Origin: an uncultured virus (IMG/VR IMGVR_UViG_2579778730_000001) | Lineage: Duplodnaviria > Heunggongvirae > Uroviricota > Caudoviricetes | Direction: 5' to 3' (one strand) | DNA: 36,363 nt | IMG/VR virus record: IMGVR_UViG_2579778730_000001 | In this document: positions 17,657 through 36,363 of the stretch, piece by piece | Layout: every line of letters begins with the position of its first letter | Position numbering within the stretch: the stretch's first letter is position 1 | Notes under the pieces: model-generated | The model's database searches: none | Told to the model about the DNA's origin: nothing | The model's input: only the letters and a program-made list of their open reading frames with translations | Translations under genes and position numbers: made by a program

Positions 17657-17854
17657 TTACATCCCGTTGCGCACCCCTGCGGCATCCGCGTTCTTCGCCT
17701 TCGCCACAATAAATCGTTCGACGGATTCCATTGTCACAAAGGTGCAACTGCAGTTTACATTGGTGCACTGGTGATAGCGCTCTTTGGTATTTTCACTTAA
17801 ATAACGGCTGGTTCTGGCGTGTGCAGAAGAACGGCACTGCGGGCAATGAAACAT
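17657..17854 (-). CDS. ogr: Ogr/Delta zinc-finger late activator
   Basis: MFHCPQC...AHARTSRYLS...ERYHQCTNVNCSCTF. Confidence 0.95.
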   Translation of the reverse strand: MFHCPQCRSSAHARTSRYLSENTKERYHQCTNVNCSCTFVTMESVERFIVAKAKNADAAGVRNGM

Positions 17855-17922
17855 ATTTTCTCTCCCTCGGTGAGCTGATGGAAATAATTATCCCACCGTT
17901 TTTCGCCATCCAGAAACGTTAT

Positions 17923-19074
17923 TCACCCTTCGCTAATACTTTCCTCATATTCAATATTATCCAGTAATGCTTCCAGCACCACCTTCGTGGTAAAGCCGCG
18001 ATCGCTCAGGCTGTGCTCGATATTTTTGATGGTCCAGGTCTGGGCATCTATCACGCGCTTGAAGCCGCTGACCGTTACCGGCGTTTCCGGATAGAGGTCG
18101 GCGCGGCCCATCGCCAGGTTGATGCTGAACGTGGCGGCAGAGCGCTGCAGCGCGTCCCACTTCGCTTTGGCGGCGCGCACCGCCTCCTCTTTGCTGTTAA
18201 AGCTGTCGGTGAGGACAAAAGCGTTAGCCGGCTCGCCCATAATGTAATCTTCGCGTTTGCCCTGCCCGTCCGGCAGCGGTGCCTGCGCGCGCGGATGCGC
18301 GACGCTGGCAGCGGGTGCCGCTGTCGGCTTGCGCTGCAGGGTAACGCTGCTCGCCTGCGACTCGGGTGCGGCGGTATTGAGCCAGCTGGCGATAACGCCG
18401 GTATAGGCCATGCGGTCGGCAATGGTGAAGGCGTGGCTGTCGCCGGCGCGGCGCGTGATAGACAGCGGCGCGATTGATTGCCCGCTTACCGTGGTTCCCC
18501 GCCCCGGCTGCAGGAACAGCACGCTGCCGTTTTTTATCGTTGCCTCGGCGCCATTTTTTCCGGCCAGCCGGGTGAGAAAGGCGATGTCAGACTCCATCGA
18601 CTGGTCGATATGCGCGATAGCGATATCCGCCAGCGCCGACGCCACCGCCGATTTCAGCCCGTTGCGCGCGGCCACCAGCCCCACCAGCGCACTGAGCGTG
18701 GTGTTGTGATAAGAGGCTTCGCGCTTGACGTTAAGCGACCCGCGAAAATCAGCGCTGTGGGCTTTAATCGAGACCCGGTCCGGCGCGCCGCTGAAGGTCA
18801 CACCATCCACGGTAAAGGTGCCTTTATCAATCAGGCCACTTCCCTTCCAGCCCAGCGACAGAGCCAGCACCGCCCCCCTGGCCGGTAGCTCAACCATGCC
18901 GTCGCTGTCATCAATCTCCAGCGTCAGCGTATCGGCGTCAAAGGCCCGGTTGTCGGTCAGGGTCAGGCTTATCAGGCGCTCGCTGACGTTGCGGGTAATG
19001 TCTTTCCCGGAGAGCGTCAGCGTGAAATCCGGTGCCAGCGCGGCTCCGGCATCGGCCAGCGTCAGGTCAATCAC
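17923..19074 (-). CDS. D: P2 gpD-like baseplate hub / late control D
   Basis: LTDNRAFDADTL, SADFRGSLN, HIDQSMESD, GRADLYPETPV. Confidence 0.92.
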   Translation of the reverse strand: MIDLTLADAGAALAPDFTLTLSGKDITRNVSERLISLTLTDNRAFDADTLTLEIDDSDGMVELPARGAVLALSLGWKGSGLIDKGTFTVDGVTFSGAPDRVSIKAHSADFRGSLNVKREASYHNTTLSALVGLVAARNGLKSAVASALADIAIAHIDQSMESDIAFLTRLAGKNGAEATIKNGSVLFLQPGRGTTVSGQSIAPLSITRRAGDSHAFTIADRMAYTGVIASWLNTAAPESQASSVTLQRKPTAAPAASVAHPRAQAPLPDGQGKREDYIMGEPANAFVLTDSFNSKEEAVRAAKAKWDALQRSAATFSINLAMGRADLYPETPVTVSGFKRVIDAQTWTIKNIEHSLSDRGFTTKVVLEALLDNIEYEESISEG

Positions 19075-19544
19075 AGCACGCCTCCCGTTACCGTCGTGAC
19101 CATCCCTTTCGCCTTACCGATCATCTCTTCGGCCTGCTGCTGCAGATCGCCAAGCTGGGCGCTGAACGGCGGGTCGACGCGGATCAGCGACACCGTAAAG
19201 TCGGTTTTGCGGGCGCTGCCGTTGCTCATCAGCTCTGAACCGTTCTCGGTAACCTTATCAATCACGTACAGGCCATAGATAAAACCGCTGCCGTCAATCA
19301 GCGGCCACGCCCGCCCCTGCTCCGCCATCAGGCGCAGCGCGGACAGCGACAGCGTGCTGCCGGTCAGCTCCGGATAAAGCGCACCGCTCAGGACGATGGT
19401 CTCCGCGTCCGGTCCCAGATACTGATAACCGGCGCGGTTGCCGACGCGACTGCCGGACGGCCAGCGATAGCCCACGGTGCGCTGCGCGCTTTGCAGGGGC
19501 AGCGTGCGGGGCATAAACACAAACATGCCTAACGCGAACATCAT
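19071..19544 (-). CDS. U: P2 gpU tail protein
   Basis: MMFALGMFVF, YRWPSGSRVG, LSGALYPELTG, GRAWPLIDG. Confidence 0.92.
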   Translation of the reverse strand: MMFALGMFVFMPRTLPLQSAQRTVGYRWPSGSRVGNRAGYQYLGPDAETIVLSGALYPELTGSTLSLSALRLMAEQGRAWPLIDGSGFIYGLYVIDKVTENGSELMSNGSARKTDFTVSLIRVDPPFSAQLGDLQQQAEEMIGKAKGMVTTVTGGVL

Positions 19545-19556
19545 GATCCCATCTCC

Positions 19557-21512
19557 TTACACGTCATATTGCATACTGGCCTGCTTACGCATCTGGCGCT
19601 GCTGTTCATAGCGCTCCAGTTCGCTACGTATGCTCTGCACCACGTCAGCGGTGGTCAGGCCGGTGCCGGATACGTTGATGTTGTAGCTGTGCTGGCTCTG
19701 GTCAACGCTGGTACGGCTGGTCGGGGCCGTCGCCGCCTGGTAGCGGGTATAGCCCTTCATCTCACCGGTGGGCGTCAGATAAGATACCGGCGCCGGGGCA
19801 CCGACCTTGTCCGCCGCCTCCTCAATCGCGCCGGACTCTTTTTTGACCACGCCCAGCTTCTCCAGCACCCAGCCAATGCCGCTGCGCAGGGTGTTAAAGG
19901 CCTTAAGCGGGGGCAGCAGCGCATCCGCCAACGACTGACCAAACAGCACACCAACATCCCGGAAGCTGTTCAGCGCCTCTTTACTCATCTGTACCGGTTC
20001 CAGCAGATCGGACAGCCACTGCCAGATGCCGCCGATGGCCTCCCCCACTTTGCCGAACAGCGCAATCTGCGGGCCAAACGCCGCCTGCACGCCTTCCCAG
20101 ATGCCGGTGAAAAGCCCACCGAGGAAGGCGCTGACCGGCTCCCAGTATTTGTACAGCAGCAGCGCGACGCCGACGATGGCGGCACCAATGGCCACTACCG
20201 GCAGGGAGATCGCGCCGATGGCCGTCGCCATGATGCCCCCGGCAATGCTGAACACCGTGCCGAGGGTGCCCGCCGCGGCAATGATGATGTTGATACCGGT
20301 CATCACCGGCCACACCACCGCGCCCATCGCGCCGATAAACCCGGCCACGCCCACGACCGCCGCAGCGATAATGGCGAGGGTGCTGGTCAGGGTCTGATTG
20401 TCGGCGATCCATGTCCCCAGGCTCTGTAACCAGCCGGTGGCGGTCTGCACCAGTTTGCGCAGGGACGACTCCTGCCCGGCAAAAATGTCGATGCTGATGG
20501 ACTCGTAAGCCGCTTTGAGCTGCGCGATATCCCCCCCGAGGCTGTCCGGGGCCGCGCTGACCCCTGGCGCGGCGGCAGTGGGATAGCGGGCTTGCAGCTG
20601 GCTCAGGGTGCCGTTGTTAACCGCGGCCATCACCACGCCGGCGTTGGTCGCCTGCGAGTCGTGGTTGGACAGGGTCATGCTGCGCACCAGCGGCATCAGC
20701 GTTGCGATCGCGGCGGCATCGCTTCCCCCCTGCGCCATCACCAGCTGCGCGCTGGTCGCGTCGGCGGCGGTGGTTGCCCCGGAGGTGCGGGCCTGCTCGC
20801 GCAGGGTGCGGAGTTCCGGCGCATCCTGAGCAAGGCCCAGCTCAGCCTGCAGTGCAGCCTGCTTCTCGGTGAAGTCATAACCGGGTTTCAGCAGTGCGGT
20901 ACCGGCGGTCACTCCGGCCGACACCACTTTCATGCCGGTATCGCTCACGCCGCTGATACGCTCCGCCCGGGCCTGGCCAGCCTGATAGCGCTGTTTCACG
21001 GCGTTGAGCTGCGCCTGCTGGCGCAGCACCCGCGCCTGAACCTCATGCTGGCGTTCAAGCTGGACGGTGGTATCGCGGATCGAAGCGCTGAGCCGCGCCC
21101 GCGTGCTGGTGAGGTTGCGGGTGCTGATACCGGCCTGCTCCAGCCCCTGACGCTGGCTTGCCAGCGAGCGTTGCAGGTCGGCGGCGTGCTGGTTCAGGGT
21201 GCGGATGTTATTCCCGGAGGCGGCCATCGCGTCCCACAGTTCCGCCGCAGGCTGTTTGCTGCTGTGGAAGGTGTCTGCCAGCGCCCGGCTCTCGCGGCGG
21301 GCGCTCTGCAATGCAGTTTCGGTGCGGGCAAGCTGCTCGCGGGTGCGCTGAAAGCTCTCCACGTCTGCCAACTGCTGATGCAGGCCGCGCAGGCTCTGCC
21401 CGATACTGCGAATATCGCCGTTGAGCGAGGCGGTCGCCGCCTCGATGGATTTGAACGGCAGCGACGCCTGACCAACGGCCCTGAGCAGTGCGTCAATGTT
21501 TGCGTTACTCAT
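19557..21512 (-). CDS. T: Tail tape measure protein (short, 651 aa)
   Basis: Position after E/E'; Ala/Gln-rich coil; LLKPGYDF, LGGD, KYWEPVSAF motifs of P2 gpT. Confidence 0.9.
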   Translation of the reverse strand: MSNANIDALLRAVGQASLPFKSIEAATASLNGDIRSIGQSLRGLHQQLADVESFQRTREQLARTETALQSARRESRALADTFHSSKQPAAELWDAMAASGNNIRTLNQHAADLQRSLASQRQGLEQAGISTRNLTSTRARLSASIRDTTVQLERQHEVQARVLRQQAQLNAVKQRYQAGQARAERISGVSDTGMKVVSAGVTAGTALLKPGYDFTEKQAALQAELGLAQDAPELRTLREQARTSGATTAADATSAQLVMAQGGSDAAAIATLMPLVRSMTLSNHDSQATNAGVVMAAVNNGTLSQLQARYPTAAAPGVSAAPDSLGGDIAQLKAAYESISIDIFAGQESSLRKLVQTATGWLQSLGTWIADNQTLTSTLAIIAAAVVGVAGFIGAMGAVVWPVMTGINIIIAAAGTLGTVFSIAGGIMATAIGAISLPVVAIGAAIVGVALLLYKYWEPVSAFLGGLFTGIWEGVQAAFGPQIALFGKVGEAIGGIWQWLSDLLEPVQMSKEALNSFRDVGVLFGQSLADALLPPLKAFNTLRSGIGWVLEKLGVVKKESGAIEEAADKVGAPAPVSYLTPTGEMKGYTRYQAATAPTSRTSVDQSQHSYNINVSGTGLTTADVVQSIRSELERYEQQRQMRKQASMQYDV

Positions 21513-21684
21513 TGGTATTTCCGCTTCGCTGTAGCGCCTTCTCGCGCCAGGTGATGAGCTCAGTCAGGCTCAGGGGATAAAGCTCAGACGGCGGCCAGTG
21601 AAAGATGACGGCGATATCCGCCATCAGATCGTCCACCGTCAGGGTTTTCGGCAGGGTTACTGCGCCGAGTTCGGCGACAAAAAA
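21505..21684 (-). CDS. gpE' extension (gpE+E' by -1 frameshift)
   Basis: TTTTTTG slippery site at 21684-21678; downstream frame MADIAVIFHWPPSELYPLSLTELITWREKALQRSG. Confidence 0.85.
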   Translation of the reverse strand, partial: FFVAELGAVTLPKTLTVDDLMADIAVIFHWPPSELYPLSLTELITWREKALQRSGNTNE

Positions 21685-21932
21685 CCTACCACCTTGCCAG
21701 CGAAGGCCAGCAGATCCGGCCAGGCCAGCTGCGCCACGTCCTGCTCGGTCAGCGTCGGGGTGGTCATGCGCGGCAGCACCTTAATCAGGGCATCCACTTC
21801 GGAGTTGGCCAGCGCTGCCAGGCCCACGCCGCGCAGAGTACCGGCGTTCGGCTGGGTAAGCGTCACGTCGCTGATGGTCAGTTCGCCGCGAACAATCGGC
21901 TGCGTCAGAATGACGGTGTTTTCGTTCTGCAT
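21657..21932 (-). CDS. E: Tail assembly chaperone gpE
   Basis: PNAGTLRGVGL, VDALIKVLPRMT, KVVGFL. Confidence 0.92.
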   Translation of the reverse strand: MQNENTVILTQPIVRGELTISDVTLTQPNAGTLRGVGLAALANSEVDALIKVLPRMTTPTLTEQDVAQLAWPDLLAFAGKVVGFLSPNSAQ

Positions 21933-21989: not shown

Positions 21990-22508
21990 TTACAGGCCGA
22001 TATTGCGACGGTGCTGGGCCAGACGGTCCACGCCGTTGATGATCTCCACCATGTTGACGGTGTCGATCTCCACCAGGGTTTTGCCGTTGATGGTCAGCTT
22101 GTAGTAGGTGCAGACCGCCGCGATTTTCGCCTCGGTGTCTTCGCCCGGCTTCGCTTCCCCGGCGTCGATTTCCTTCAGACGACCGCGCATCACCACTTCA
22201 ACCGGCACGATCTCGCCGGTATCGTCGCGCTGATAGGAGCCGGCAAAGCGCACCGGCACCGCGTCCGCGCTCACCGCGCCGTACAGCGACCAGATGGCCT
22301 CATCCGGGAAGCCGCCCAGCGTCCACTCGGTGGAGAGCGCCTCATCGTCCAGCCCCAGATCCACCGGGGCGACGCCGTTCATGCCGCCGCCGCGGTAGTT
22401 CTCCAGTTTGCGGGTCAGCTTCGGCAGCGTGACCGCTGTCACTACACCCAGATAGCTGGTGCCATCCAGGAACAGGTTCATGTATTTAAGCTTGCGCGGT
22501 AATGCCAT
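21990..22508 (-). CDS. FII: Major tail tube protein
   Basis: MALPRKLKYMNLF...LPKLTRKLENYRGGGMNG; 172 aa. Confidence 0.96.
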   Translation of the reverse strand: MALPRKLKYMNLFLDGTSYLGVVTAVTLPKLTRKLENYRGGGMNGVAPVDLGLDDEALSTEWTLGGFPDEAIWSLYGAVSADAVPVRFAGSYQRDDTGEIVPVEVVMRGRLKEIDAGEAKPGEDTEAKIAAVCTYYKLTINGKTLVEIDTVNMVEIINGVDRLAQHRRNIGL

Positions 22509-22520
22509 GGGTCAGCCTCC

Positions 22521-23711
22521 TTAGCTGTTGTTGACCGAGGTGACCAGGTTCGCCAGGTACTTGTCGGTAATGCGCTGGCGCAGGGTCAGGTTTTCCAGCG
22601 GCGGCACGGGGGTATAGTCGTAATCAATCACCAGCTTGCCAGCCTTGAGCGTAGCTTCATCGTTGGCGCTCTCATCGAACCAGCACTGGGCGTCGATCAG
22701 GTAGCCGTTGGATTTCAGCTCGCGGAACTTGGCGTTAATGCCGTCGATGATGTCGCGGATCAGCGTGGCGGTAACCGGCTTGTCTACTGCCCACATGTGC
22801 GCATCGGCCATGGTGTCGGCAATCACCTGCGCGGTACGGGTGTAGTTTTCAAACAGGAACAGCGGATCGTCAGAGCAGGTGCGGTTGCCCCAGAAGCGGA
22901 AACCGTCCTTGCGGATAAGCGTGGTGACGCCCGCTTCGTTGAGCAGATCCGCATCGGTGCCGGGCTCCTGCAGATCCCAGAACACCGAGGCGCTGATGCC
23001 GGTCACGCCATTGACGCCGACGTTGGACAGGGTTTTGTGCCAGCCGGTGGACTGGTCGATGGCCGCACGCAGGCCGAGCGCGCGGGCGGTAGCGAACGCC
23101 GTTGCGCTGGCGTTAGTCGCGGTGTCCCACGCCAGGAAATCTGGCCAGATCACCATCAGCTCGCGCTGGCTGAAGTTGGCGCGGTAAGCGATGGCTTCCG
23201 ACACGGTTTTACAGCCCCAGGCGCTGACGTAGCCGAACGCACGCAGCTTCTGGCACACCGAAGCCAGCGCGGTCGCCACTTCCTGCGTATCGAGACCCGG
23301 CACGCCGAGAATACGCGGCTTCACGCCGGTCACCGCTTCGGCGGTGAGCAACGCTTTCAGGCCGGTATAGCTGCCGTTCGCGTCGGTGGTCCCGATGACG
23401 TTAGAGACGGTCTGGGCGAACGCTGCCTCAGCATCCTCACCGCTGCCCTCTTCCACGCGCACCACCACGGTGACGGGTTTGGACTGGTCGGCAATCGCCT
23501 GCAGCGCCGCACCGAGGGTGCCTTTTTTACCGGCTTTGCCAATCGCGCTCTGCACGTTGGTAATCAGCACGGGCTGGTTTAAAGGGAAAGTCGCCGCGTC
23601 AGCATCGCTGGCCGTACAGACCATACCGATAATTGCCGTTGAGACAGTTGAAATGACGCGCGTGCCGTCGTTAATTTCGACGACCTGGACGCCGTGGTGA
23701 AAATCACTCAT
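22521..23711 (-). CDS. FI: Contractile tail sheath protein
   Basis: MSDFHHGVQVVEINDGTR, GFRFWGNRTC; 396 aa from ATG 23711 with GGAG RBS. Confidence 0.96.
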   Translation of the reverse strand: MSDFHHGVQVVEINDGTRVISTVSTAIIGMVCTASDADAATFPLNQPVLITNVQSAIGKAGKKGTLGAALQAIADQSKPVTVVVRVEEGSGEDAEAAFAQTVSNVIGTTDANGSYTGLKALLTAEAVTGVKPRILGVPGLDTQEVATALASVCQKLRAFGYVSAWGCKTVSEAIAYRANFSQRELMVIWPDFLAWDTATNASATAFATARALGLRAAIDQSTGWHKTLSNVGVNGVTGISASVFWDLQEPGTDADLLNEAGVTTLIRKDGFRFWGNRTCSDDPLFLFENYTRTAQVIADTMADAHMWAVDKPVTATLIRDIIDGINAKFRELKSNGYLIDAQCWFDESANDEATLKAGKLVIDYDYTPVPPLENLTLRQRITDKYLANLVTSVNNS

Positions 23712-23735: not shown

Positions 23736-23801
23736 TGAGTCCATTTTCACGTCTGGCACCGTCTGGCGCTATTTGTCAGGGTTGGGAAAGGGATGGCACA
23801 A
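23736..23801 (-). promoter_or_regulatory. Ogr-dependent late promoter pF
   Basis: TTGTGCC-N9-CCA (TGT-N12-CCA, near the TGT-N12-ACA consensus)...ATAGCGCC-N16-GAAAAT upstream of FI. Confidence 0.75.
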
Positions 23802-24381
23802 CGGGGGGGGCGGGCCCGGCGTTGCCGGGAACCGGCGTTGCCGGGAACCGGCGGTACAGGGTTGAAAGGCCAATATCGAACAGGATCGCCACGCGCTGGC
23901 GCGATTCGCCGGCGGCCAGCAGCCTGCCCACCTGCGCCCACTGCGCCTCGGTCAGCTTCGGGCGACGCCCGCCAATCCGCCCCTGCGCTCGCGCCGCCGT
24001 CAGCCCGGCCCGGGTGCGTTCGACAATCAGCTCACGCTCCATCTCGGCGAGGGCGCCCATGACGTGAAAGAAGAAACGTCCCATCGGGGTGCTGGTATCA
24101 ATGCTGTCGGTGAGGCTGCGAAAATTGACGCCGCGCAGCCGCAGCTCTTCAATCAGGGTCACCAGATGCCGCATGCTGCGCCCGAGCCTGTCCAGCTTCC
24201 ACACCACCAGGGTATCGCCCTCGCTGAGCATGCGTAACAGCTTCTTAAGGCCGGGCCGTTCAGCGGTCTTGCCGCTGATTTTATCCTCGAAAATCAGCTC
24301 ACATCCTGCGCACTCCAGCGCATTTCGCTGCAGCGCGGTGTTCTGGTCGTTTGTTGATACCCTGACATAGCCGATAAGCAT
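23776..24381 (-). CDS. Serine DNA invertase (Pin/Gin/Hin family)
   Basis: MLIGYVRVST, VWKLDRLGRS, GRIGGRRPKL, C-terminal HTH. Confidence 0.95.
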   Translation of the reverse strand: MLIGYVRVSTNDQNTALQRNALECAGCELIFEDKISGKTAERPGLKKLLRMLSEGDTLVVWKLDRLGRSMRHLVTLIEELRLRGVNFRSLTDSIDTSTPMGRFFFHVMGALAEMERELIVERTRAGLTAARAQGRIGGRRPKLTEAQWAQVGRLLAAGESRQRVAILFDIGLSTLYRRFPATPVPGNAGPAPPVVPSLSQP

Positions 24382-24457
24382 ACTACTCCGCCCTTCGAAA
24401 AAGGCGTAAGCATGCCACGAGTGCGGGAAAGTGGGGTAATTCGGGTGAGAGAGTGGG

Positions 24458-24483
24458 TTCTTAAAAACCTTGGTTTGGGGGAA
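24458..24483 (+). other. Invertase crossover site (hix/gix/pix-like), left
   Basis: TTCTTAAAAACCTTGGTTTGGGGGAA, inverted partner of 26534-26559. Confidence 0.88.
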
Positions 24484-25041
24484 GGCTCCGCGCTGCCGGT
24501 GGGTGTGCCGGTACCGTGGCCATCAGCCACCGCGCCAGCAGGTTGGCTGAAATATAACGGTGCGGCATTCGATAAAGCGCGTTATCCAAAACTCGCTGCG
24601 GTTTATCCCAGTGGAGTATTACCCGATCTGCGCGGGGAATTTATTCGTGGCTGGGATGATGGTAGGGGNNNNNNNNNNNNNNAATTACCAGATATGAGTT
24701 TTTTTGGAGCCAGTTTGAACCCAAATGGTTACCAGGCTCTGCCTTCCGGATTGATTATTCAGTGGGGAAAAGTTGCTATTGATTATACCGGCTCTCATAC
24801 CGCTTACGTTGTAGCTGGAGGCAGTGTTAATAAATATACTGGCACAGGTAATTTCCCTGTCACTTTTCCCAATGCCGCATTAGTCGCATTAGGTACAAGT
24901 AATGATGTTCCTAATGCACATATTTCTTCAGTTTACGTCTCCTCAACGAGAGGCTTTATATGGTCGCATCACTCTACTCAAGCTTATTTATCCACTCCGG
25001 GTGGTGGAAATGGATTTACCTGGATTGCGTTAGGGTATTAA
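24458..25041 (+). CDS. Silent alternative tail-fibre C-terminal cassette (interrupted by assembly gap)
   Basis: LKNLGLGEGSALPVGVPVPWP collar shared with fibre H, then GYQALPSGLIIQWG...FPVTFPN...WIALGY; expressed only if inverted. Confidence 0.82.
24669..24682. other. Assembly gap (14 N)
   Basis: N run at the end of a ~210-bp inverted repeat. Confidence 0.99.
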
Positions 25042-29015: not shown

Positions 29016-29653
29016 TGCGTGCCCTCCGTCCAGCTGCCGCCGCGCTGTACCGCGCCGTGACTGTGGCTGTCGATCTGCACACCGTTTGAGGTCAGCGCCC
29101 CGCCGCTGTGCGTAATGTTGCCGGTCATGGTTCCTCCTCGTTGCACCTCGATGGAGCCGGTAATCAGTCGGTTGGTGCAGACCACGTCCGGCGCATCCAG
29201 GGTGATGCGGCTTTCGGCCTTCACCAGCACCACCGGTACCGTGGCGGTAATCGACTCCGACGCGGTGACGTCTGCGGTTTTGATCCCGGCCACCTGCAAC
29301 GCGCCGGTGTCGGGTTCATAAGAGAGCGTGGCCCCGTCGGGGAACGCCATGTGCCAGCCATCCGCCGAGGCGGACGGCGCGGGATGCGCGTCGGAAAAGA
29401 TCCCCGGCAGGATAAACGCGGTGCTCAGTTCCCCACCGACGGCCAGCAGCATGACCTGTTCGCCAACGGAGGGCGCCCACCAGCTGCGTGAGCGTCCGGC
29501 GCGCTGGGTCAGCCACTGCAGCCAGTCGGTGGTGATGCCGCCGGTCTTTACCCGACAGCGCCCGGCGGCAAGGTCGGTTTCCACCACCACGCCGGTGCGG
29601 ATCAGGTTGCGCAGTAAGCGCGAAATGTCGTGAAGCGATGCGAGTGTGTTCAT
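29012..29653 (-). CDS. V: Baseplate spike gpV
   Basis: NLIRTG, WWAPSVGEQV, C-terminal HSH metal-binding motif; start ATG 29653. Confidence 0.94.
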   Translation of the reverse strand: MNTLASLHDISRLLRNLIRTGVVVETDLAAGRCRVKTGGITTDWLQWLTQRAGRSRSWWAPSVGEQVMLLAVGGELSTAFILPGIFSDAHPAPSASADGWHMAFPDGATLSYEPDTGALQVAGIKTADVTASESITATVPVVLVKAESRITLDAPDVVCTNRLITGSIEVQRGGTMTGNITHSGGALTSNGVQIDSHSHGAVQRGGSWTEGTQ

Positions 29654-29718
29654 AGGTTCAGGATGCAATAAAAGAGATTCAGCGACCATTTCATCCGGCG
29701 CGATGGCGGCTCACACAA
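29653..29718 (-). promoter_or_regulatory. Late promoter pV (probably leaderless transcript)
   Basis: TTGTG... with -10 CATCCT at the same offset as in pF; ATG follows 6 nt after the -10. Confidence 0.6.
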
Positions 29719-29759
29719 CGAGCGGTCTTGCGCCGGGATAAAATCCATGCGGCAGCGCG

Positions 29760-30236
29760 TCAGCTGCCTGATGTAGGCTGGCGGCTGACCAGCTCGTCCT
29801 TCATCCACAGCTCCACCGGCCGCGTTACCGCTGCGGGTTCTGGCGGTTCCGGCACCCAGGTGGCGTGCAGCGCCTCGCCCTGCTGACTGACCAGCGCACG
29901 CTCGGTAAGCGGGATGAGAATGGTGAGCTGCGGCGTGCCGTCTGCGGCGGTCGCGAGCTGCCAGCTGAAGCCGCCGGGCTGCTCCGGGTTCACGGGCATC
30001 AGATCCGGCTGGTTAACCCGCAGCCAGGCCAGCAGCGGCACCACCACCTCTTCCAGTTCGCCGTTAAACGGCGAGACGATGAGCCGGAGCTGATACTGCG
30101 CTTCAAACGAGAGCGTGGCGGCAAGGGTTGAGACGATACGCCCGCTTTCGGTAGTGAGACGCAAGCGGTCGGGATGGTCGCGCAGGTCCGGGATCGCCGC
30201 CGCGAGGGCCTGGCGCAGGCTAGTGGGTTTGAGCAT
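29760..30236 (-). CDS. R: Tail completion protein gpR
   Basis: MLKPTSLRQAL, LSFEAQY, LAWLRVNQPDLM, LTERALV, PEPPEP. Confidence 0.85.
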   Translation of the reverse strand: MLKPTSLRQALAAAIPDLRDHPDRLRLTTESGRIVSTLAATLSFEAQYQLRLIVSPFNGELEEVVVPLLAWLRVNQPDLMPVNPEQPGGFSWQLATAADGTPQLTILIPLTERALVSQQGEALHATWVPEPPEPAAVTRPVELWMKDELVSRQPTSGS

Positions 30237-30489
30237 CGAGTTTATCCTGGCAATGTTTAACGGTTTCAACCTGCAGCGCGCAGGCAATCAGCGCGCGCTC
30301 AAGCTGGTGAATATCGGCGCTCAGGTCGCCGTTAGTCTTTGGATCGCTGCCCGGCATCGGGCACAGGCTCACCCGTGGACAGGCGCTGGAGATCATCACC
30401 GGCGCTGGCGTAACCGGGGCGCTGGTGCAGCTGACGCACAGCATCAGGCAGCTCAGCGTCATACCAGCGGCGAAGCGATGCGTTTTCAT
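30220..30489 (-). CDS. lysC: o-spanin LysC (Rz1-like lipoprotein)
   Basis: Lipobox-like LCVSC, CPRVSLC, TNGDL, CALQVETVKHCQ. Confidence 0.82.
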   Translation of the reverse strand: MKTHRFAAGMTLSCLMLCVSCTSAPVTPAPVMISSACPRVSLCPMPGSDPKTNGDLSADIHQLERALIACALQVETVKHCQDKLDAQTH

Positions 30490-30757
30490 GAAGTAGCCTC
30501 GTAATGGTGTGTTCCCGCCGGGCCGCCCGGGTGCCGGCAGCCTCAAGCCGCTGGCGCAGCGCGACCTGGGCACGTTCGTTATCCCGGCCCAGCATCAGTG
30601 CCGCAGCCAGCCGCGTTTCCAGCGCGCCCATCGCGGCTTTCTGGCTGGCACTGAGGGCGCTGGCCTCGCTGAGCGCCTGCGCGAGCTGACCATTTTTATG
30701 GTGCAGCCACAGCACCGCGCTCAGCAGCAGCAGCGTTAATGCAGCCAGGGTTCTCAT
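30332..30757 (-). CDS. lysB: i-spanin LysB
   Basis: Start MRTLAALTLLLL at 30757; NERAQVALR, RLLHENASLRRW, LPDAV. Confidence 0.85.
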   Translation of the reverse strand: MRTLAALTLLLLSAVLWLHHKNGQLAQALSEASALSASQKAAMGALETRLAAALMLGRDNERAQVALRQRLEAAGTRAARREHTITRLLHENASLRRWYDAELPDAVRQLHQRPGYASAGDDLQRLSTGEPVPDAGQRSKD

Positions 30758-31263
30758 TGCACCCCCGTCAGGCACCAGGCCTGCTCGCGGGCGCGCCGGT
30801 GCTTCAGGCCATTGCTTGCCACGCCGTTGACGTAGATCCAGCGCGGCAGCTGATGGCACGCCTGCGCCCACTTCCCGCGGCGGAGAAATCCCGCCAGCGT
30901 GGAACGGCAGGCGGCCCCGGTGCCGACGTTGAAGGCGAAGCTGACCAGCGCGTCGTATACCGGGTCGGGCATCGACACCGTTATGCAGTTCGCCAGCCGG
31001 CGCTCGGTGTGCAGCACGTCGCTCACCAGGTTGGCAGCAGCGTCGCGCTCGGTGACAGGTCGCGTCGGCGTTACGCCGGCGGTATGACCGATGCCGCTGG
31101 TCCAGACCCCGGCGCTGCACTGATACGGACGCAGGCGGCACCCCTCCAGATCGGCAATCAGCGCCAGCCCTTCCCGGGAGGTATGCAGCAGTCGAAAGTC
31201 GGGCACCAGCAGCGTCAGAGCCAGCACCGTGGCGATGGAACAGCCCTTAGCGAGTGAGTTCAC
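30754..31263 (-). CDS. Endolysin, GH24 lysozyme
   Basis: IADLEGCRLRPYQCSAGVWTSGIGHT, SFAFNVG, hydrophobic N-terminus. Confidence 0.93.
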   Translation of the reverse strand: MNSLAKGCSIATVLALTLLVPDFRLLHTSREGLALIADLEGCRLRPYQCSAGVWTSGIGHTAGVTPTRPVTERDAAANLVSDVLHTERRLANCITVSMPDPVYDALVSFAFNVGTGAACRSTLAGFLRRGKWAQACHQLPRWIYVNGVASNGLKHRRAREQAWCLTGVQ

Positions 31264-31462
31264 GGCGCACCTCGTCGCTGCCGGATTTGATCAGCAGGTA
31301 GCTTTTGCGGCGGTAATACCAGTTAACGCCAACGGTACATACCACCCCCAGCACCCCGAACCAGGCGGCGAAATCCTGCGGCGTCATGGCGCCGAAGAAC
31401 GCCAGTCCGGCGCTGATCCAGTAGGCAACAAATGAGGTAATTCTTTCCCCGGTCAGTCCCAT
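31247..31462 (-). CDS. Holin (HP1-type)
   Basis: ERITSFVAYW, TPQDFAAW, VNWYYRRK. Confidence 0.88.
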   Translation of the reverse strand: MGLTGERITSFVAYWISAGLAFFGAMTPQDFAAWFGVLGVVCTVGVNWYYRRKSYLLIKSGSDEVRRELTR

Positions 31463-31656
31463 AGGTTGACGCTCTCCCGGGTCGGCGAGGCGGGCACCTC
31501 AGGCAGTTCGACGGCGGTGCCGTGCGGCAGCATCACCCCATGCGAGGCGAGTCCCGGATTGGCAGCCAGTACACTCTCCACCACGCCCTGAGTGCGGCCG
31601 TAGTAGCGCTGGCAAATAACGTCGAGCGTGTCCCCCTGGCTGGCTATGGTTTTCAT
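31453..31656 (-). CDS. X: Tail protein gpX (LysM-like)
   Basis: QGDTLDVICQRYYGRT, ANPGLA, VNLWD; GAGGAG RBS. Confidence 0.95.
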   Translation of the reverse strand: MKTIASQGDTLDVICQRYYGRTQGVVESVLAANPGLASHGVMLPHGTAVELPEVPASPTRESVNLWD

Positions 31657-31734
31657 TGGCGTCGCTCCTCGTTACGGTCAGTTATCCCGGCGCGACAAAG
31701 AGTCACCGCGCCGCAGCCCGATTAGCGCCGGGCC

Positions 31735-31800
31735 TGAGACTATTTTCCTGCGCCGGGCAGCCGGGCGCTATCAAGGGCGGATGGAGGAAGGCAGGCACAA
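31735..31800 (-). promoter_or_regulatory. Ogr-type late promoter directly upstream of X
   Basis: Gap-free match to pF: TTGTGCC-N9-CCA-N10-ATAGCGCC-N16-GAAAAT-N3-CTCA. Confidence 0.75.
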
Positions 31801-31818
31801 CATTGCCGGACAACGGGC

Positions 31819-31846
31819 AAAAAAAAGCCCGCCGGAGCGGGCGGGC
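31819..31846 (-). terminator. Intrinsic terminator after tum, insulating the late operon
   Basis: GCCCGC-TCCG-GCGGGC followed by T8 on the minus strand. Confidence 0.85.
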
Positions 31847-31946
31847 AAAGGCATAAAACCGGTATCACGGCGGCATAATGGTTTGAGTTGGCGCGGTAAG
31901 ACAGCGCGGGCGTCGGCACCCGGCGGCGTAGCCTGTTACCACGGCG

Positions 31947-32138
31947 CTATTTGTCGATGGGTAATACGGTGAAAGTCACGGTGTAATTGCCGTCGGTCAT
32001 CATCTGCCCGCCAGCCAGCTCGGCTATCAGATTTAATGCAATTTCCCTGTCTCTTTCCTGGCTGGCTCCTTCTGACGTCAGGCGCGCAATTAACTCGACG
32101 CGCTCTAACATCACCTGCTCTTTCAACCCCTGATCCAC
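31947..32138 (-). CDS. tum: Tum/TumA-like antirepressor
   Basis: VMLERVELIARL...RDREIALNLIAELA; downstream of A, behind an SOS box, GGAGG RBS. Confidence 0.72.
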   Translation of the reverse strand: MDQGLKEQVMLERVELIARLTSEGASQERDREIALNLIAELAGGQMMTDGNYTVTFTVLPIDK

Positions 32139-32162
32139 GTGACCTCCCCTACACCAAAAGCA

Positions 32163-32178
32163 CTGTATATCTATACAG
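32163..32178. promoter_or_regulatory. LexA (SOS) box
   Basis: CTGTATATCTATACAG (CTG-N10-CAG), 24 bp upstream of the tum start. Confidence 0.92.
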
Positions 32179-32285
32179 TATCACGCCAGGGGTTATTTGA
32201 AAACGTGTAATCGAACCAATCTTTCATTTTTTTATCATGCTGAAATTAAAAGAATATTCATCCATGACGCGCGTCACGTTCAGGG

Positions 32286-34511
32286 TCACTTTTGCGCCCG
32301 GATCGCGGCGAAGCGGGCCAGGATACGTCGGGCGTTTTGCTGGCGTTCGGCAGCCGTCTGACGCTTTGCACAGGGCGAAACGCCAAAGATTTCCCCACTG
32401 GACGATCCCCGACACCACAGGCCGTTAATACGCGCCGTGGTCCCCTTCAGCAATGAGAAACCCATGCCCGCGCTAATGCTTTCGCCGGTCATCAGCAGAA
32501 TATCTGTCTGGATCTCCCGGATCGCGTCACGATCGGTGTCGCTGCCCGGAATAAAGGGCGGCCGCCGCACGGCAGTTGGCAGGCGCAGGCGGGCAGATAA
32601 GCGCCGCCGCTGACTGCGGGTGAGCGGCGTCACGCCATCCCACCGGGTATCGTCCCGATCGTGCATCGCCCCCGTACAGTTAGTGACAGAACTCCAAGAG
32701 GAGTGAGTTTGCGCCTGCGCGGCGGCGATCTTCGGCACGATTTTCCAGCGCCGGGTACGGGTCAGCAGCGGCACGTCGCGCCCCACGCCGGTATCGTATA
32801 CGCCGCGCACGGCTACCTTTTCCTCGCCGTAGGGGTTACGCGCATCGTCCGTCTGATACCAGACGCGCACCTGCACCGCCGCGCGCGGTACGAACGGCCC
32901 GCCCTGGGCGGTGACGTATCCGGCCCAGTCGCCACGGTCCGCTGCCTGATGCACCGTGGCAAAATCCACGCTCAGGCCGCGCGCAGCCTCGCTGTCAGCC
33001 AGGCGGCGCAGCTCGCGGTAAACGGTGACCGGCGCGCCGCCGATAAACTGGAACTGTCGGATGTGCCAGCGTGCGGCCCACGCCGATACCGCCGCCGCGC
33101 TCTGGGTAAGCAGCCCGCCGGTTTCGCTGTCGCGTTCCCCGTCGAGGGCATAGCCGTCAACGTTTTTGGCAATGTATTTGGCGATGTACCCGGTGGCGGA
33201 GCCTTTTTCGGCGTCAATGGCAACCGCATGACAACGACCCTGGCGGGCGCGCTCATCGCTCAGCTCGTCAGCATCCTGCTCGCAGGCATAGTCAGCCATG
33301 ATCGCCCGCACCTGTGCCATGTTTTCAGGGCGCATAAACATCAGCATATGCCAGTGAGGCGTGCCGTCGTGATGGGGTTCGGCGACGCGAATACCGAACA
33401 CGCGGATCTGCTGGCGGTGTAAGCGAGCGCGAATCCGCGCCCAGAGCGAGGCGAACCAGCGCTGGGTCTCTGCCGGGCTGGCACCGCACCAGCGTGGATT
33501 CGGGAAGCCGGATCGCAGCGTGGCATGAAAGGATGAGGGGGCCGTCAGGGTATAGAAGTCGCCGACGTAGCCGAGGGTCTGACAGATGTTTTCGAAGCCG
33601 CGGATGCGCGTCATCAGCTCGCAGCGGCGGATCGCCGGGTTGGCATGGGAAGCGTCGTAGCGTTCAATCAGGCTGATGCGGTTGCCCTCTTCATCCTCCA
33701 GCTCCATGCCCTTTAGAAATTCACGGGTACGGCGTTTCTGCTCGCGCCATTCGCTGAGGCAGCTTTTACTGGCGTATGGCGTGCCGCGCTGGCTGACATT
33801 GCCCACGGCAATCTGCAGATGCTCGCGCCAGGCGCTGGCGATGCGGCGCAGGCGGCTGCGCCACCACAGGGCGTTGCACATGCGCAACACCGCCGGGCCA
33901 AGCTGCTCTTCACAGGCGTAGCGGCGGGTAATGCGCTCCCACGCGGGCGGGGTGATGCGAAACAGCTGGCAGAGATGGGCGGCGCGCAGATACCAGGCGT
34001 GCAGGGTTTTCAGCTCGCCCCAGTTTTCATCCGCTTCGCTGTCGATTTCACCGCGGATCAGACTGGCAATGTCCGCCGCGAGCAGATCGATGTCGGCTTT
34101 AGTCAGATCCGCCAGCCGGTTGTAGCGGGCCAGCAGATCCATCAGCCGGGTAATAAGGTAGCGGCGGTACGCATCATCGAAGCGCCAGCCAGTGAGCTCC
34201 CGCGTCAGGGTGCGCTCGATGCCGCTTGCCTGATAGCGTTCGCTCACCCGCTGCAGACGCGGCAGCATCCGCCGTCCAAAGGCAATCAGCGCCGCATTGG
34301 CTCGCGGGATACCGCGCTCGTTCGCCAGCCGGTCCATACGCTGGTAAATCCCGGCGGTGACGCAGTGAGGATGGTGCGCCAGCCAGCGTCGGGTACGCAG
34401 CAGCGTCGCGATGGTGCGGTTGCGGCGCTGCTCCTCCTCCCGGGTGAGACCGGGGCTGGTGATCGCCGGACGCGGGGCATTCCACGGCCAGGCCCAGGCA
34501 ATATCACTCAC
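32286..34511 (-). CDS. A: P2 gpA-like rolling-circle replication endonuclease
   Basis: WPWNAPR, TLTAPS, EPHHDGTPHWH (HUH), ATGYIAKYIAKN (YxxxY); 741 aa uninterrupted. Confidence 0.95.
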   Translation of the reverse strand: MSDIAWAWPWNAPRPAITSPGLTREEEQRRNRTIATLLRTRRWLAHHPHCVTAGIYQRMDRLANERGIPRANAALIAFGRRMLPRLQRVSERYQASGIERTLTRELTGWRFDDAYRRYLITRLMDLLARYNRLADLTKADIDLLAADIASLIRGEIDSEADENWGELKTLHAWYLRAAHLCQLFRITPPAWERITRRYACEEQLGPAVLRMCNALWWRSRLRRIASAWREHLQIAVGNVSQRGTPYASKSCLSEWREQKRRTREFLKGMELEDEEGNRISLIERYDASHANPAIRRCELMTRIRGFENICQTLGYVGDFYTLTAPSSFHATLRSGFPNPRWCGASPAETQRWFASLWARIRARLHRQQIRVFGIRVAEPHHDGTPHWHMLMFMRPENMAQVRAIMADYACEQDADELSDERARQGRCHAVAIDAEKGSATGYIAKYIAKNVDGYALDGERDSETGGLLTQSAAAVSAWAARWHIRQFQFIGGAPVTVYRELRRLADSEAARGLSVDFATVHQAADRGDWAGYVTAQGGPFVPRAAVQVRVWYQTDDARNPYGEEKVAVRGVYDTGVGRDVPLLTRTRRWKIVPKIAAAQAQTHSSWSSVTNCTGAMHDRDDTRWDGVTPLTRSQRRRLSARLRLPTAVRRPPFIPGSDTDRDAIREIQTDILLMTGESISAGMGFSLLKGTTARINGLWCRGSSSGEIFGVSPCAKRQTAAERQQNARRILARFAAIRAQK
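32676..32703 (-). other. Putative P2-type replication origin within A
   Basis: CTCCTCTTGGAGTTCTGTCACTAACTGT resembles the P2/186 ori, at the usual position in A. Confidence 0.6.
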
Positions 34512-34732
34512 ACGCCGCCCCGGTAGTGCTTCTGCTTCAGCTCGGCGATCTCCTGACAGGTGACGCAGCAGCTGACGCCGGGCAGGATCGCACGCCGCGA
34601 TGCCGGGATCGGTTCGTCGCAGCTTGCACAGGTCAGGCGTGATGGCCCGGTCAGGCGGCTGCGCGCCTGAACGATGTAGCGTTCGCGCGCCTCCTGCTCG
34701 TACTGCTGGGCGATATCAATTTCATCGGCCAT
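34508..34732 (-). CDS. TraR/DksA C4 zinc-finger protein
   Basis: MADEIDIAQ, CASCDEPIPASRR, CVTCQ. Confidence 0.9.
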   Translation of the reverse strand: MADEIDIAQQYEQEARERYIVQARSRLTGPSRLTCASCDEPIPASRRAILPGVSCCVTCQEIAELKQKHYRGGV

Positions 34733-34950
34733 CAGTCGATCTCCCGGGCCTGGTGTGCAAAGCGGTCGGCTTCTTCGCTCAGCAACGCTGCCGCTTCGAC
34801 GCCGTTCAGCGCTTCACGACTGATTTTGCGTGCCAGCGCGTCCAGACGCCCGGCGATGGCCTGCGCCCCGCCCTTGCGCTCCTGCATTTGCGCAGCATGG
34901 ATCATCAGCGCCAGCGCCTGTTCAGCGTCCGGATGGGGTAAAGTGTTCAT
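34732..34950 (-). CDS. DUF2732-like P2 early protein
   Basis: AQMQERK...RLDALA...LNGVEAAALLSEEA; start ATG 34950. Confidence 0.75.
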   Translation of the reverse strand: MNTLPHPDAEQALALMIHAAQMQERKGGAQAIAGRLDALARKISREALNGVEAAALLSEEADRFAHQAREID

Positions 34951-35026
34951 GTATTCCACGGTTATTCTCCTGAATTCAGGCAACAGCAGGCCAGGCGGGT
35001 TTACGCCATTGCTGTTGATTAATGGA

Positions 35027-35368
35027 TTAGTTCGGCAGGGTCAGCCGTCTGGGAAACAGGCTTACTACCGCCCGGAAGTGGTTCATCGCCGCGATCAGCG
35101 CCCGCTGTTCCTGCCGGGTGAAGGCATCCGGCGCTGCGCTGTGGCGTGCGGTGGGCAGCTTCGCAAAGTAAAAGATGGCAGCCAGCGCCCGGCAGTTATC
35201 GTGATACCCCGGGTCGCGGCGATCGCGCATCTCATTCAGGAAACGCGCCACCTCATCCCAGCCGCTGTCGCCCCAGTGCCGGGCGCGCAGCGCTGCCAGC
35301 TGGTTCAGCCCGGCAGCCCGTTCACCCGCGCTCAGCGGCACCGTGGCCGCTACACCTTCAATTGCCAT
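35027..35368 (-). CDS. DUF5347-like early protein (Fels-2/186-type)
   Basis: MAIEG...GLNQLAALR, RALAAIFYFAKL, LIAAMNHFRAVVSLFP; GGGAGG RBS. Confidence 0.72.
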   Translation of the reverse strand: MAIEGVAATVPLSAGERAAGLNQLAALRARHWGDSGWDEVARFLNEMRDRRDPGYHDNCRALAAIFYFAKLPTARHSAAPDAFTRQEQRALIAAMNHFRAVVSLFPRRLTLPN

Positions 35369-35391
35369 CTCGCCTCCCGTCAGGCTGAAAA

Positions 35392-35406
35392 TTCGCAATT
35401 AACGAA
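35392..35406. promoter_or_regulatory. Distal CI operator-like site after apl
   Basis: TTCGCAATTAACGAA, related to TTCGCATTTTGCGAA in the switch region. Confidence 0.5.
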
Positions 35407-35417
35407 TTCGTTATTCA

Positions 35418-35642
35418 TTACTGCGCGTTAAGCGAAACTGCGCAGCCGCTGAGGGCTTCCACCGTCAGCGCCGCCATGTTGACTTCAACGCGGGCGCGGC
35501 GCTTATCGCCTTTATCACGAATCGGCAGACGGCCGTCGCGGATCATGTCCCGGGCAGTGCCAATGGCGGTACCGGTCAGGCGGCAGTACTCGTGCAGCGG
35601 CAGGAAAGGGGTTGGGATAGTGATTGTAATGTCAGGACGCAT
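35418..35642 (-). CDS. apl: Apl/Cox-like repressor-excisionase
   Basis: MRPDITITIPTPFLPLHEYCRLTG...GRLPI; divergent from cI. Confidence 0.8.
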   Translation of the reverse strand: MRPDITITIPTPFLPLHEYCRLTGTAIGTARDMIRDGRLPIRDKGDKRRARVEVNMAALTVEALSGCAVSLNAQ

Positions 35643-35687
35643 AAGGCAAACTCCTCGTTTCGGTTGCGCTCGGTAATAGCCAACATT

Positions 35688-35764
35688 ATTCGCATAATCA
35701 ACAAGACGAGGTCAGAATAATTCGCATTTTGCGAAGTGTCAATTCGCAATACGCATTTTGCGGA
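35688..35764. promoter_or_regulatory. Lysis/lysogeny switch with CI operator-like repeats
   Basis: TTCGCATTTTGCGAA (35721-35735), TACGCATTTTGCGGA (35750-35764) and two further TTCGCA half-sites. Confidence 0.65.
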
Positions 35765-35778
35765 GTTCTGGATTTTAA

Positions 35779-36363
35779 GTGACTGATTTCAAAATTGATT
35801 TAAGTAGCGACAGTGCGTCCGTTCTGGACCGGGTCATTGAGGCGTACGGTTTCCCGTCCAAAATGATGCTGGCCCAGCATCTGGATATGGCTGCCAGCAG
35901 CCTCTCCTCGCGTTACAAGCGCGGCGGCTTCCCTGCGGATATCGTGGTGCGCTGCATGGCGGAAACCGGCGCATCGCTGGCATGGCTGGCAACCGGGGAA
36001 GGTAAAAAATTTGCCGACGACGAACCTGACGTGATGAAGCTGCCGCGTAAGAAGCTGGTTGACGGCCAGCTCTACGATGCGGGCTACGCCATGTTTGATA
36101 AGGTGTTTTTCCGCGCGGGCGTCCCGCTTCCCGCCGAGCCGTTTTGCCTGCAGGATGACAAAGCGCAGTACATTATCGATAGCACCTTCGACGACATCTA
36201 CGACGGCGAGTGGCTGGTGAATATCGAAGGGAAAATCAGCGTCCGATCATTAATCCGTATCCCGGTACGCAAGGTGCGCGTCAGCGGCGTCGGCACCGCC
36301 TTCGACTGCGCGCTGGAAGATATCGACGTGCTGGGACGCGTGGTGATTACAATCGTTAACTGA
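35779..36363 (+). CDS. cI: Phage 186-type CI repressor
   Basis: LDRVIEAYGF, LAQHLDMAASSLSSRYKR (HTH), ETGASLAWLATGEG, DGEWLVNIEG; 194 aa. Confidence 0.92.
   Translation: MTDFKIDLSSDSASVLDRVIEAYGFPSKMMLAQHLDMAASSLSSRYKRGGFPADIVVRCMAETGASLAWLATGEGKKFADDEPDVMKLPRKKLVDGQLYDAGYAMFDKVFFRAGVPLPAEPFCLQDDKAQYIIDSTFDDIYDGEWLVNIEGKISVRSLIRIPVRKVRVSGVGTAFDCALEDIDVLGRVVITIVN

Follow-up and report, generated by a model that had tools for sequence, protein, structure and literature searches.

P2-like loci that have lost their heads are known from several enterobacteria. In Kosakonia, the P2-like 'phage region 2' of ten strains has a single hypothetical gene in place of the eight genes of the capsid locus, and the product, kosakonicin, was seen by transmission electron microscopy (TEM) as 130-nm contractile particles without capsids (PMC6629978; Patz et al., 2019). 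OgrK, a CI repressor and DinI have been retained at the xenorhabdicin locus (PMC13280938). Pantailocins are said in excerpts of the pantailocin preprint to lack capsid and replication genes and, in many cases, to carry an invertase next to the fibre genes; the same excerpts cite the invertase switch of carotovoricin. Dickeyocin P2D1 resembles P2 tails and is induced by mitomycin C, in passages that do not mention a repressor, integrase, Ogr or LexA. Here we analyse a P2/186-type locus at positions 17657-36363 of IMG/VR record IMGVR_UViG_2579778730_000001, a stretch of 36,363 nucleotides referred to below as the window. The locus has kept tail, lysis, control and replication genes and has lost those for head, packaging and integration. 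Comparative evidence makes it probable that this element is an R-type tailocin locus of P2/186 origin, fixed in the chromosome and inherited vertically, and that it encodes a headless contractile-tail bacteriocin. Its products would most likely be DNA-damage-induced killing particles of the kind known from related bacteria.

Results

Gene content and the tum-X joint

The window corresponds to contig 1, positions 330749-367111, of a draft genome (G000; 4.26 Mb, 57.1% G+C, 45 contigs). Its G+C content is 39-51% over positions 1-17600, which are island DNA, and rises to 60-67% from ∼17900 onwards. Scans with Pfam and PHROG profiles named every large open reading frame (ORF) in 17657-36363. The element extends over ∼18 kb and holds 26 genes (Table 1). 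They comprise a complete contractile-tail set (sheath, tube, tape measure, chaperones, hub, baseplate, spike and fibre with its chaperone), an intact lysis cassette of its own (holin, endolysin, LysB and LysC), the CI/Apl switch, the A replication initiator and the Ogr/B late activator. The E/E' pair is intact as well, the -1 frame remaining open from the slip site until just before T. The original prediction, made from the sequence without database searches, had described the tail, baseplate, lysis and regulatory ORFs as intact. The profile scans agree, and the same ORFs are open in the sister species discussed below (G001).

Neither the element nor its copy in the sister species gave a tblastn match (E ≤ 1e-4) to the coliphage 186 proteins for portal, terminase, scaffold, capsid, small terminase and head completion, or to S, Int, CII and Fil of 186. 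There is no room for S or cII, since the gap between R and V measures ∼70 bp and that between cox and the DUF5347 gene 20 bp. The conserved 186 cos core was without a match in the window by blastn-short, the best hits being random 12-mers. The head and packaging block (Q, P, O, N, M, L and cos) had been predicted to be replaced by 290 bp between tum and X that hold a terminator and a promoter, and S, cII and fil to be gone; the first statement is correct to the base and the second agrees with the searches and the gap sizes. The terminator consists of a 7-bp G+C stem and a T run. The prediction had also asked whether int follows cI. It does not: a major facilitator superfamily (MFS) transporter gene adjoins cI, followed by ordinary chromosomal genes. 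No tRNA gene was found near the left end, and neither the ancestral left boundary nor an att site was found. When the 290-bp joint was compared by blastn with 77 related loci, a Siccibacter turicensis record (L029) gave the only match, a partial one; the end points of the deletion are not mappable by sequence.

Loss of the head genes through a mis-join at the tum-X gap has to be considered for a draft of 45 contigs with a 14-N gap inside the element. However, contigs from four public runs (X1, X2, X7 and X8; Table 1) run unbroken across the joint with ∼99% identity, the same joint occurs in the sister species and in 20 other loci, and the N gap lies at an invertible repeat, not at the joint. 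The chance that the headless layout is such an artefact is negligible.

Conservation in the sister species

The genome of the sister species carries the same element at C16:305291-323615 with 81-85% nucleotide identity, and the right-hand chromosomal flank is syntenic between the two genomes at 80-84% nucleotide identity. All 26 genes are open there too. Ratios of non-synonymous to synonymous substitution rates (dN/dS) range from 0.03 (FII) to 0.54 (LysB), and from 0.06 to 0.20 among control and replication genes (0.08 for cox; ogr, tum, cI and A are listed in Table 1). The synonymous rate itself (dS) is 0.30-0.94 for element genes compared with 0.65-1.39 for flanking chromosomal genes. These values compare two species of the genus, with eight flank genes, and the fibre chaperone G was left unscored: it shares 44% amino acid identity with its counterpart, and its dS was not computable, the genes being saturated or not orthologous. 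The shared locus, the similar dS and the intact genes fit presence of the element in the common ancestor and purifying selection since. On this comparison of two species, in which only the right flank is syntenic, the element is to be regarded as fixed in the chromosome and conserved under purifying selection.

A defective prophage in neutral decay, which lost its head block by chance and is otherwise intact for lack of time, is the first alternative to be weighed against a domesticated element. Loss of head genes, int and cII is a typical outcome of prophage deletion, and the left flank is an insertion hot spot with ∼49 kb of low-G+C islands in G000. Yet the element is common to two species at a dS of ∼0.6 with 26 of 26 genes open and no dN/dS above 0.54, the same losses recur across genera, and a late promoter sits exactly at the joint. 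We consider neutral decay improbable. Domestication rather than random decay, as originally predicted, is supported by the sequence comparison, because the element and its right flank recur in the sister species, the genes are intact and constrained, the losses are patterned and the late promoter lies directly before X. Further support comes from the retention of the LexA box, tum, cI, cox, A and ogr, and from the Kosakonia relatives, which represent kosakonicin with particles seen by TEM.

Head genes elsewhere in the genome

The genome has one PF04984 sheath gene, which is that of the element, and two matches to P2-type capsids. The first capsid match belongs to a complete HP1-like prophage (C1:271.6-298.7 kb) ∼50 kb from the element, which carries int, cI, cII, fil, A, ogr, Q-L, R, S, a DUF2586 sheath, tube, lysis genes, tape measure, baseplate and fibre. 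The second is a gene split by a TAG codon (135 + 193 amino acids) in a P4-like satellite beside proBA on contig 26. No orphan head block was detected by tblastn across the whole genome. A split phage with a head-only partner element was thus ruled out, as the HP1-like prophage is complete with its own DUF2586 sheath and tail and the contig-26 capsid gene lies in the P4-like satellite. With the joint bridged by contigs of public runs, the headless state does not stem from misassembly.

The second alternative is a helper-dependent, satellite-like replicon that would excise and replicate by means of A and be packaged in the heads of a co-resident P2-family phage such as the HP1-like prophage. A and its origin (ori) are indeed conserved, a complete HP1-like prophage is present ∼50 kb away in G000 and ∼4 kb away in the sister species, and int is kept in some related headless loci. 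But a packaging signal and an integrase, both expected of a P4-like or helper-dependent satellite, are missing from the element. No cos was found in the window or, by blastn-short, in any of 20 headless loci, compared with 46 of 57 other loci of the gpA-anchored sample described below; int is absent from both species of the genus, and so is S, annotated as a tail-completion protein. Moreover, element and chromosomal flank have diverged to the same extent, as is consistent with vertical descent. A satellite life style is accordingly judged very unlikely.

Both elements with head genes deserve a separate remark. The HP1-like prophage is 92-96% identical between G000 and G001 against 80-84% for the chromosomal flanks (loci L018 and L019), and its exchange or acquisition is therefore recent; in G001, only ∼4 kb separates this prophage from the headless element on the ogr side. 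The P4-like satellite (G000:C26:25360-33590; positions 10360-18590 of L021) consists of an integrase gene, two unnamed ORFs, the split capsid gene and genes for an Ash-family protein and a primase-helicase (Zn-ribbon, Toprim, DUF927).

Regulatory signals

The LexA box upstream of tum is a perfect palindrome, CTGTATATCTATACAG (read on the + strand). The LexA-type pattern has four matches in the window where 0.29 are expected, and all 44 loci with a tum gene, 17 of them headless, have the box upstream of it. Tum itself is a 63-residue short form with the N-terminal domain only and without the DinI-like half. Short Tum also occurs in head-bearing phages and is thus not a product of the head deletion. 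The 186 record (NC_001317) annotates Tum as an inhibitor of CI DNA binding. The parts of the predicted LexA-Tum-CI-A-Ogr cascade are therefore all retained and, as judged by their dN/dS values, constrained, with Tum in its short form.

A putative late-promoter motif, GTTGTG-N18-30-ATAG/ATGG (ATAGC/ATGGT), has three matches on the - strand of the element, before X, V and FI, and these recur at the same three places in the sister species; elsewhere in the window there is one match, on the + strand at 2469, in the island. The FI copy nearly equals the annotated B-binding site/pJ of 186 and the X copy resembles the pV/p12 site. The P2 late-promoter consensus in the form TGT-N12-ACA had no match in the element and four in the window with 6.1 expected; this form is either wrong or too strict, and the motif derived from the sequences was used instead. 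In most headless loci the motif lies 90-110 nt before X, whereas head-bearing L052 has it ∼3.5 kb upstream of X, at the expected start of gene O. From these positions it appears that the promoter of the O operon was kept and is now joined directly to X, a lead supported by the 186 annotation.

Between cox and cI lie two operator-like palindromes whose placement is suggestive; the pattern itself occurs four times in the window against 2.55 expected and is not above chance. We also observed a third, half-matching copy (35392-35406, two mismatches) at the end of cox. It lies ∼330 bp away from the operators between cox and cI, is reminiscent of the FR site that flanks the 186 operators, and is without statistical support.

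Conservation of cI, cox and the operator-like sites would be compatible with an immunity or defence island, in which CI confers superinfection immunity against 186-like phages and the tail genes are simply carried along. This third alternative, which we rate as low as the satellite, leaves unexplained why sheath and tube are strongly constrained (dN/dS 0.03-0.05), why the E/E' frameshift site and the lysis cassette are preserved, and why the fibre tips are diversifying and invertible.

Tail-fibre switch

By its sequence, the element carries a Hin-type invertible tail-fibre switch, which had escaped the original prediction and was added by the present analysis. A 2.1-kb segment beside the invertase gene is bounded by inverted repeats of 213 bp that match at 100% and begin at a palindromic AAACCTTGGTTT core. 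Of the two pairs of fibre tip and chaperone inside the segment, the current one is read from the - strand and the alternative one from the + strand. The element thus has these features of a Hin/Gin/Cin switch: serine invertase, inverted repeats with a crossover core and two alternative tips with chaperones. The 14-N gap is native to the assembly and falls exactly at the inner edge of the left repeat; this is what mixed orientations would cause, a hint but no proof. The 'Mu-like crossover site' of 186 was not found in the window with up to seven substitutions. The fibre tips and chaperones (25001-26000) have a G+C content of ∼41% within an element of ∼64% and are its least conserved part relative to the sister species, which suggests that they are imported receptor-binding modules.

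Distribution of the headless layout

A sample of 77 loci from named genomes was anchored on gpA, the product of gene A, and is accordingly biased towards A. Twenty loci are headless (X within 0.6-1.5 kb of A), 48 have head genes and nine are cut short or unclear. The headless ones come from Enterobacter (8), Kosakonia (2), Pantoea (2), Yokenella, Pseudocitrobacter, Lelliottia, Mixta, Erwinia, the S. turicensis record, which is the same copy of the element as in G001, and two others. Because of the bias, a second sample was anchored on X: with each genus of the family represented by a single genome, PF05489 occurred in 45 of 151 genomes, and the best 40 places not seen before were classified as head-bearing (24), headless (11), partial or cut (4) and without an adequate X match (1). 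A lies 0.5-1.6 kb from X in eight of these 11 headless loci and is lost in three.

S follows the head genes closely. It is absent from 11 of 11 headless loci in the X-anchored sample and present in 23 of the 24 head-bearing ones, the exception being cut by a contig end; in the gpA-anchored set, tblastn with the 186 protein found it in none of 22 headless loci. cII is likewise absent from 22 of 22 and present in 49 of 57 others. Since S was always lost together with the head genes in the loci examined, the pattern points to S as a head-joining and not a tail-assembly protein.

On a gpA tree of 69 rows (quick method, LG+G4; ten loci with high-scoring segment pairs under 550 amino acids left out), the headless state needs at least five changes compared with 17.6 in shuffles. 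The trait is hence clustered, but without one clean origin, unless recombination blurs it. The gpA of the window and that of the sister species fall into an all-headless group with L084 and the Kosakonia rows (Shimodaira-Hasegawa-like approximate likelihood ratio test support 88), in which the L084 branch is long.

Three headless loci stood out in the survey. In L104 (G015) and L114 (G123), R directly follows X with no match to holin, endolysin or spanin genes between them, so that either the variant is more reduced still or the lysis genes lie elsewhere. L027 (Yokenella regensburgei) is the only headless locus with a match to a remnant of the head-completion gene L (61% amino acid identity), just upstream of X, possibly a vestige of the loss of the head block.

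Replication module

The HUH and YxxxY motifs of gpA are kept in 21 of 21 headless copies; the sister species reads HWHLLA. In an alignment of 70 A genes, third-codon-position conservation peaks most strongly at the stretch equivalent to nt 28565-28600 of 186, whose record places ori at 28576. At this peak, conservation reaches 0.90 in the 20 genes from headless loci and 0.95 in the 50 others, whereas the gene-wide means are 0.65 and 0.62, respectively. The ori core GGAGTTCTGTCAnTAACTGTACG is nearly invariant in headless and other genes alike, inside an otherwise variable stretch of the protein, and occurs once in the window. Catalytic motifs that are kept together with an origin conserved at the nucleotide level indicate that the enzyme and its site are both maintained. 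Late gene expression of P2 depends on replication. Taken together, the conservation suggests amplification in situ upon induction. Tentatively, the headless elements might be self-amplifying tailocin replicons, in which gpA would nick its own ori after the SOS response and replication would proceed in place without excision, raising the copy number of ogr, the late operons and perhaps neighbouring DNA. We regard this extension as possible but on balance doubtful. If true, it would explain selection on A and ori in most headless lineages, and tailocins would not be defined by loss of replication. Among the listings and passages returned by literature searches on tailocins, no paper on retained gpA or ori was found.

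Table 1. Features of the element (window coordinates) and contigs that bridge the tum-X joint.
Feature	Position	Strand	Evidence and remarks
ogr/B-type zinc-finger late activator	17657-17854	-	PF04606 E 3.7e-22; 69% amino acid identity to 186 B; dN/dS 0.06 vs G001
D (hub), U, T (tape measure, 651 aa)	17923-21512	-	PF05954, PF06995; phrog_28; intact in G001
E tail chaperone and E' -1 frameshift extension	21516-21932	-	PF10109; slip site TTTTTTG at 21684
FII tube and FI sheath	21990-23711	-	PF04985 E 4e-63; PF04984, PF17482, PF22671; 97-98% amino acid identity to G001; dN/dS 0.03-0.05
Putative late promoter 5' of FI (GTTGTG..ATAGC)	23768-23802	-	Close to annotated 186 B-binding site/pJ; kept in G001
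Hin/Gin/Cin-type DNA invertase	23776-24381	-	PF00239 E 1.5e-51, PF02796; phrog_125 E 6.7e-95; 93% amino acid identity to G001
Alternative fibre tip	24412-25041	+	ORF broken by 14-N gap 24669-24682
Invertible fibre segment	24455-26562		Inverted repeats 24455-24668 and 26349-26562; PF02413 on both chaperones
Alternative fibre chaperone	25058-25480	+	PF02413
Current fibre chaperone	25452-26060	-	PF02413
H tail fibre	26060-27154	-	PF12571 E 2e-61, PF07484; constant N-terminal part outside invertible segment, current tip inside
Baseplate I, J, W and spike V	27151-29689	-	PF09684, PF04865, PF04965, PF18715/PF04717
Putative late promoter 5' of V	29685-29719	-	Resembles region upstream of 186 orf32; kept in G001
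R tail terminator	29760-30236	-	PF06891; phrog_65; S gone between R and V
Lysis cassette: LysC (nested), LysB spanin, endolysin, holin	30220-31462	-	PF23793, PF00959, PF16080; phrog_89, phrog_952, phrog_20
X (LysM-like tail protein)	31453-31656	-	PF05489 E 1.4e-27
Joint in place of cos-Q-P-O-N-M-L (290 bp)	31657-31946	-	Terminator 31846-31827 with T run; late-promoter motif 31767-31801
Short Tum-type antirepressor (63 aa)	31947-32138	-	phrog_189 positions 1-62 of 151, E 6.5e-22; 62% identity to 186 Tum N-terminus; dN/dS 0.08
LexA (SOS) box CTGT-N8-ACAG	32163-32178		24 nt upstream of tum
A, rolling-circle replication initiator	32286-34511	-	PF05840 E 9.5e-116; HUH and YxxxY; ori core 32673-32695; dN/dS 0.20
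Early operon: TraR/DksA-type zinc finger, DUF2732, DUF5347, Cox/Apl-like repressor-excisionase	34508-35642	-	PF01258, PF10809, PF17282; phrog_575 E 3.8e-27
Two operator-like palindromes TTCGCA-N3-TGCGAA	35721-35764		Between cox and cI; one perfect, one with 2 mismatches
186-type CI immunity repressor	35779-36363	+	PF07022, PF16452; dN/dS 0.13; MFS transporter next; stop codon ends at last window base
Contig bridging the joint, X1 record 1	26600-33000
Contig bridging the joint, X2 record 8	29430-32612
Contig bridging the joint, X7 record 18	30647-33000
Contig bridging the joint, X8 record 26	29487-33000

Neighbouring island DNA

Positions 1-17600 of the window are part of ∼49 kb of low-G+C island DNA without a counterpart at that place in the sister species. 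The ORFs include a large helicase-domain protein (2-4120), IS1 (4195-4698) beside an N6-methylase fragment (4773-5126), YagK/YfjJ, DUF3987, AlpA and Fic proteins, a tyrosine integrase (9750-11111) and a KAP NTPase (11836-14067). Two overlapping ORFs in different frames (15938-16315 and 16081-16458) both match the Tlde1 domain and are possibly one frameshifted gene. Next come a CHAP-domain ORF (16827-17183) and a DUF3828 ORF (17176-17616), which look like an effector-immunity pair. The genes at this place in the sister species are unrelated.

Discussion

Gene content, intactness, conservation, synteny, losses and motifs of the element were computed; for its mode of action we propose a scheme in which every functional step is modelled on homologous parts of phage 186. 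DNA damage would take LexA off the box upstream of tum, and the short Tum antirepressor, by analogy, would inactivate CI. The early operon (cox/apl-like gene, DUF5347, DUF2732, zinc finger and A) and ogr would then be expressed. Ogr is predicted to turn on three late promoters, those of X (with the lysis genes and R), V (with baseplate and fibre) and FI (with sheath, tube, E/E', tape measure, U and D). With neither S nor any head gene left, tail assembly would skip the joining to heads. Holin, endolysin and spanins would then lyse the producer cell and release the particles. The Hin-type invertase may flip the 2.1-kb segment, exchange fibre tip and chaperone and so change the target range. Lacking cos, heads and int, the element cannot package or move itself.

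Several observations weigh against a vertically inherited tailocin. LysB (dN/dS 0.54) and the DUF2732 protein (0.44) show relaxed constraint, and the dS of FI and FII (0.30-0.32) is below that of the flank genes; exchange between species, as opposed to pure vertical descent, could account for the difference, and so could codon bias. The left flanks of the two species are unlike, with ∼49 kb of islands between the HP1-like prophage and ogr in G000 and ∼4 kb in G001; the genes left of ogr share no homology between the two genomes, and hence it is the right flank by which the two copies are placed at the same locus. The late-promoter motif was derived from these same sequences before it was checked against the 186 annotation. 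An integrase is kept in six of 19 headless relatives checked by Pfam, so the family is not uniformly immobile. Finally, A, ori and cox are kept though a tailocin has no obvious need for them, and passages of a review describe tailocins as prophages that have lost replication and capsid genes (PMC10598620), a definition from which the element departs with its A gene and conserved ori.

With this locus, the producers of P2-derived tailocins gain a further genus, probably Siccibacter. The locus also offers a clean two-species case of domestication, with equal divergence of element and flank and constraint on every gene. Three regularities seen across the family are testable and, to a modest degree, new: S disappears along with the head genes, a late promoter precedes X, and A and ori are usually retained. 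The last of these runs against the textbook definition of a tailocin. The invertible low-G+C fibre tips are a natural source of exchangeable targeting modules.

Coliphage 186 (Peduoviridae) is like the element in gene order, LexA box, tum, the cI/apl switch, A with its internal ori, B/Ogr with late sites and the E/E' frameshift. Amino acid identities to 186 are 61% for X, 70% for V, 57% for A, 62% for the N-terminus of Tum, 69% for B and 41% for CI. Unlike 186, the element is without cos, W/V/T/R/Q (the homologues of Q-L), O (the homologue of S), int, cII, fil, dhr and orf97, and its Tum lacks the DinI-like half; on the other hand, it has gained an invertase and an invertible fibre segment, in place of which 186 shows no more than a relic crossover site. 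That segment resembles the Mu G, P1 C and carotovoricin switches, in which a serine invertase beside inverted repeats swaps the fibre C-terminus and chaperone. As a difference, the repeats of the element are at least 213 bp long, and its switch is known from sequence.

Xenorhabdicin (xnp1), pantailocins, dickeyocin P2D1 and R-type pyocins are headless P2-related contractile bacteriocins as well, likened here by the descriptions available for them. In those descriptions the loci are without replication genes, whereas the element keeps a constrained A and ori. The kosakonicin locus (PMC6629978) is P2-like too and has a short stretch between early region and X in place of the capsid block. The element has this layout, with the early region joined to X, no S and homologous tail proteins. 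In the two Kosakonia loci of our sample (L081 and L086), A is followed directly by X, S is missing and amino acid identities to the window are 83-87% for FI, 75-76% for J and 58-61% for A. They differ from the element by an integrase beside cI and no detectable tum. Kosakonicin further has several fibre genes with no invertase switch reported, and one hypothetical gene where the joint of the element holds a terminator and a promoter only; kosakonicin particles have been seen by TEM, and the element is known here from its genes. A full-text literature search returned no paper that pairs Siccibacter with a tailocin. The headless P2-derived R-type tailocin is thus a known kind, its layout shared by 20 of 77 gpA-anchored and 11 of 40 X-anchored loci elsewhere, and it is found here in a new genus.

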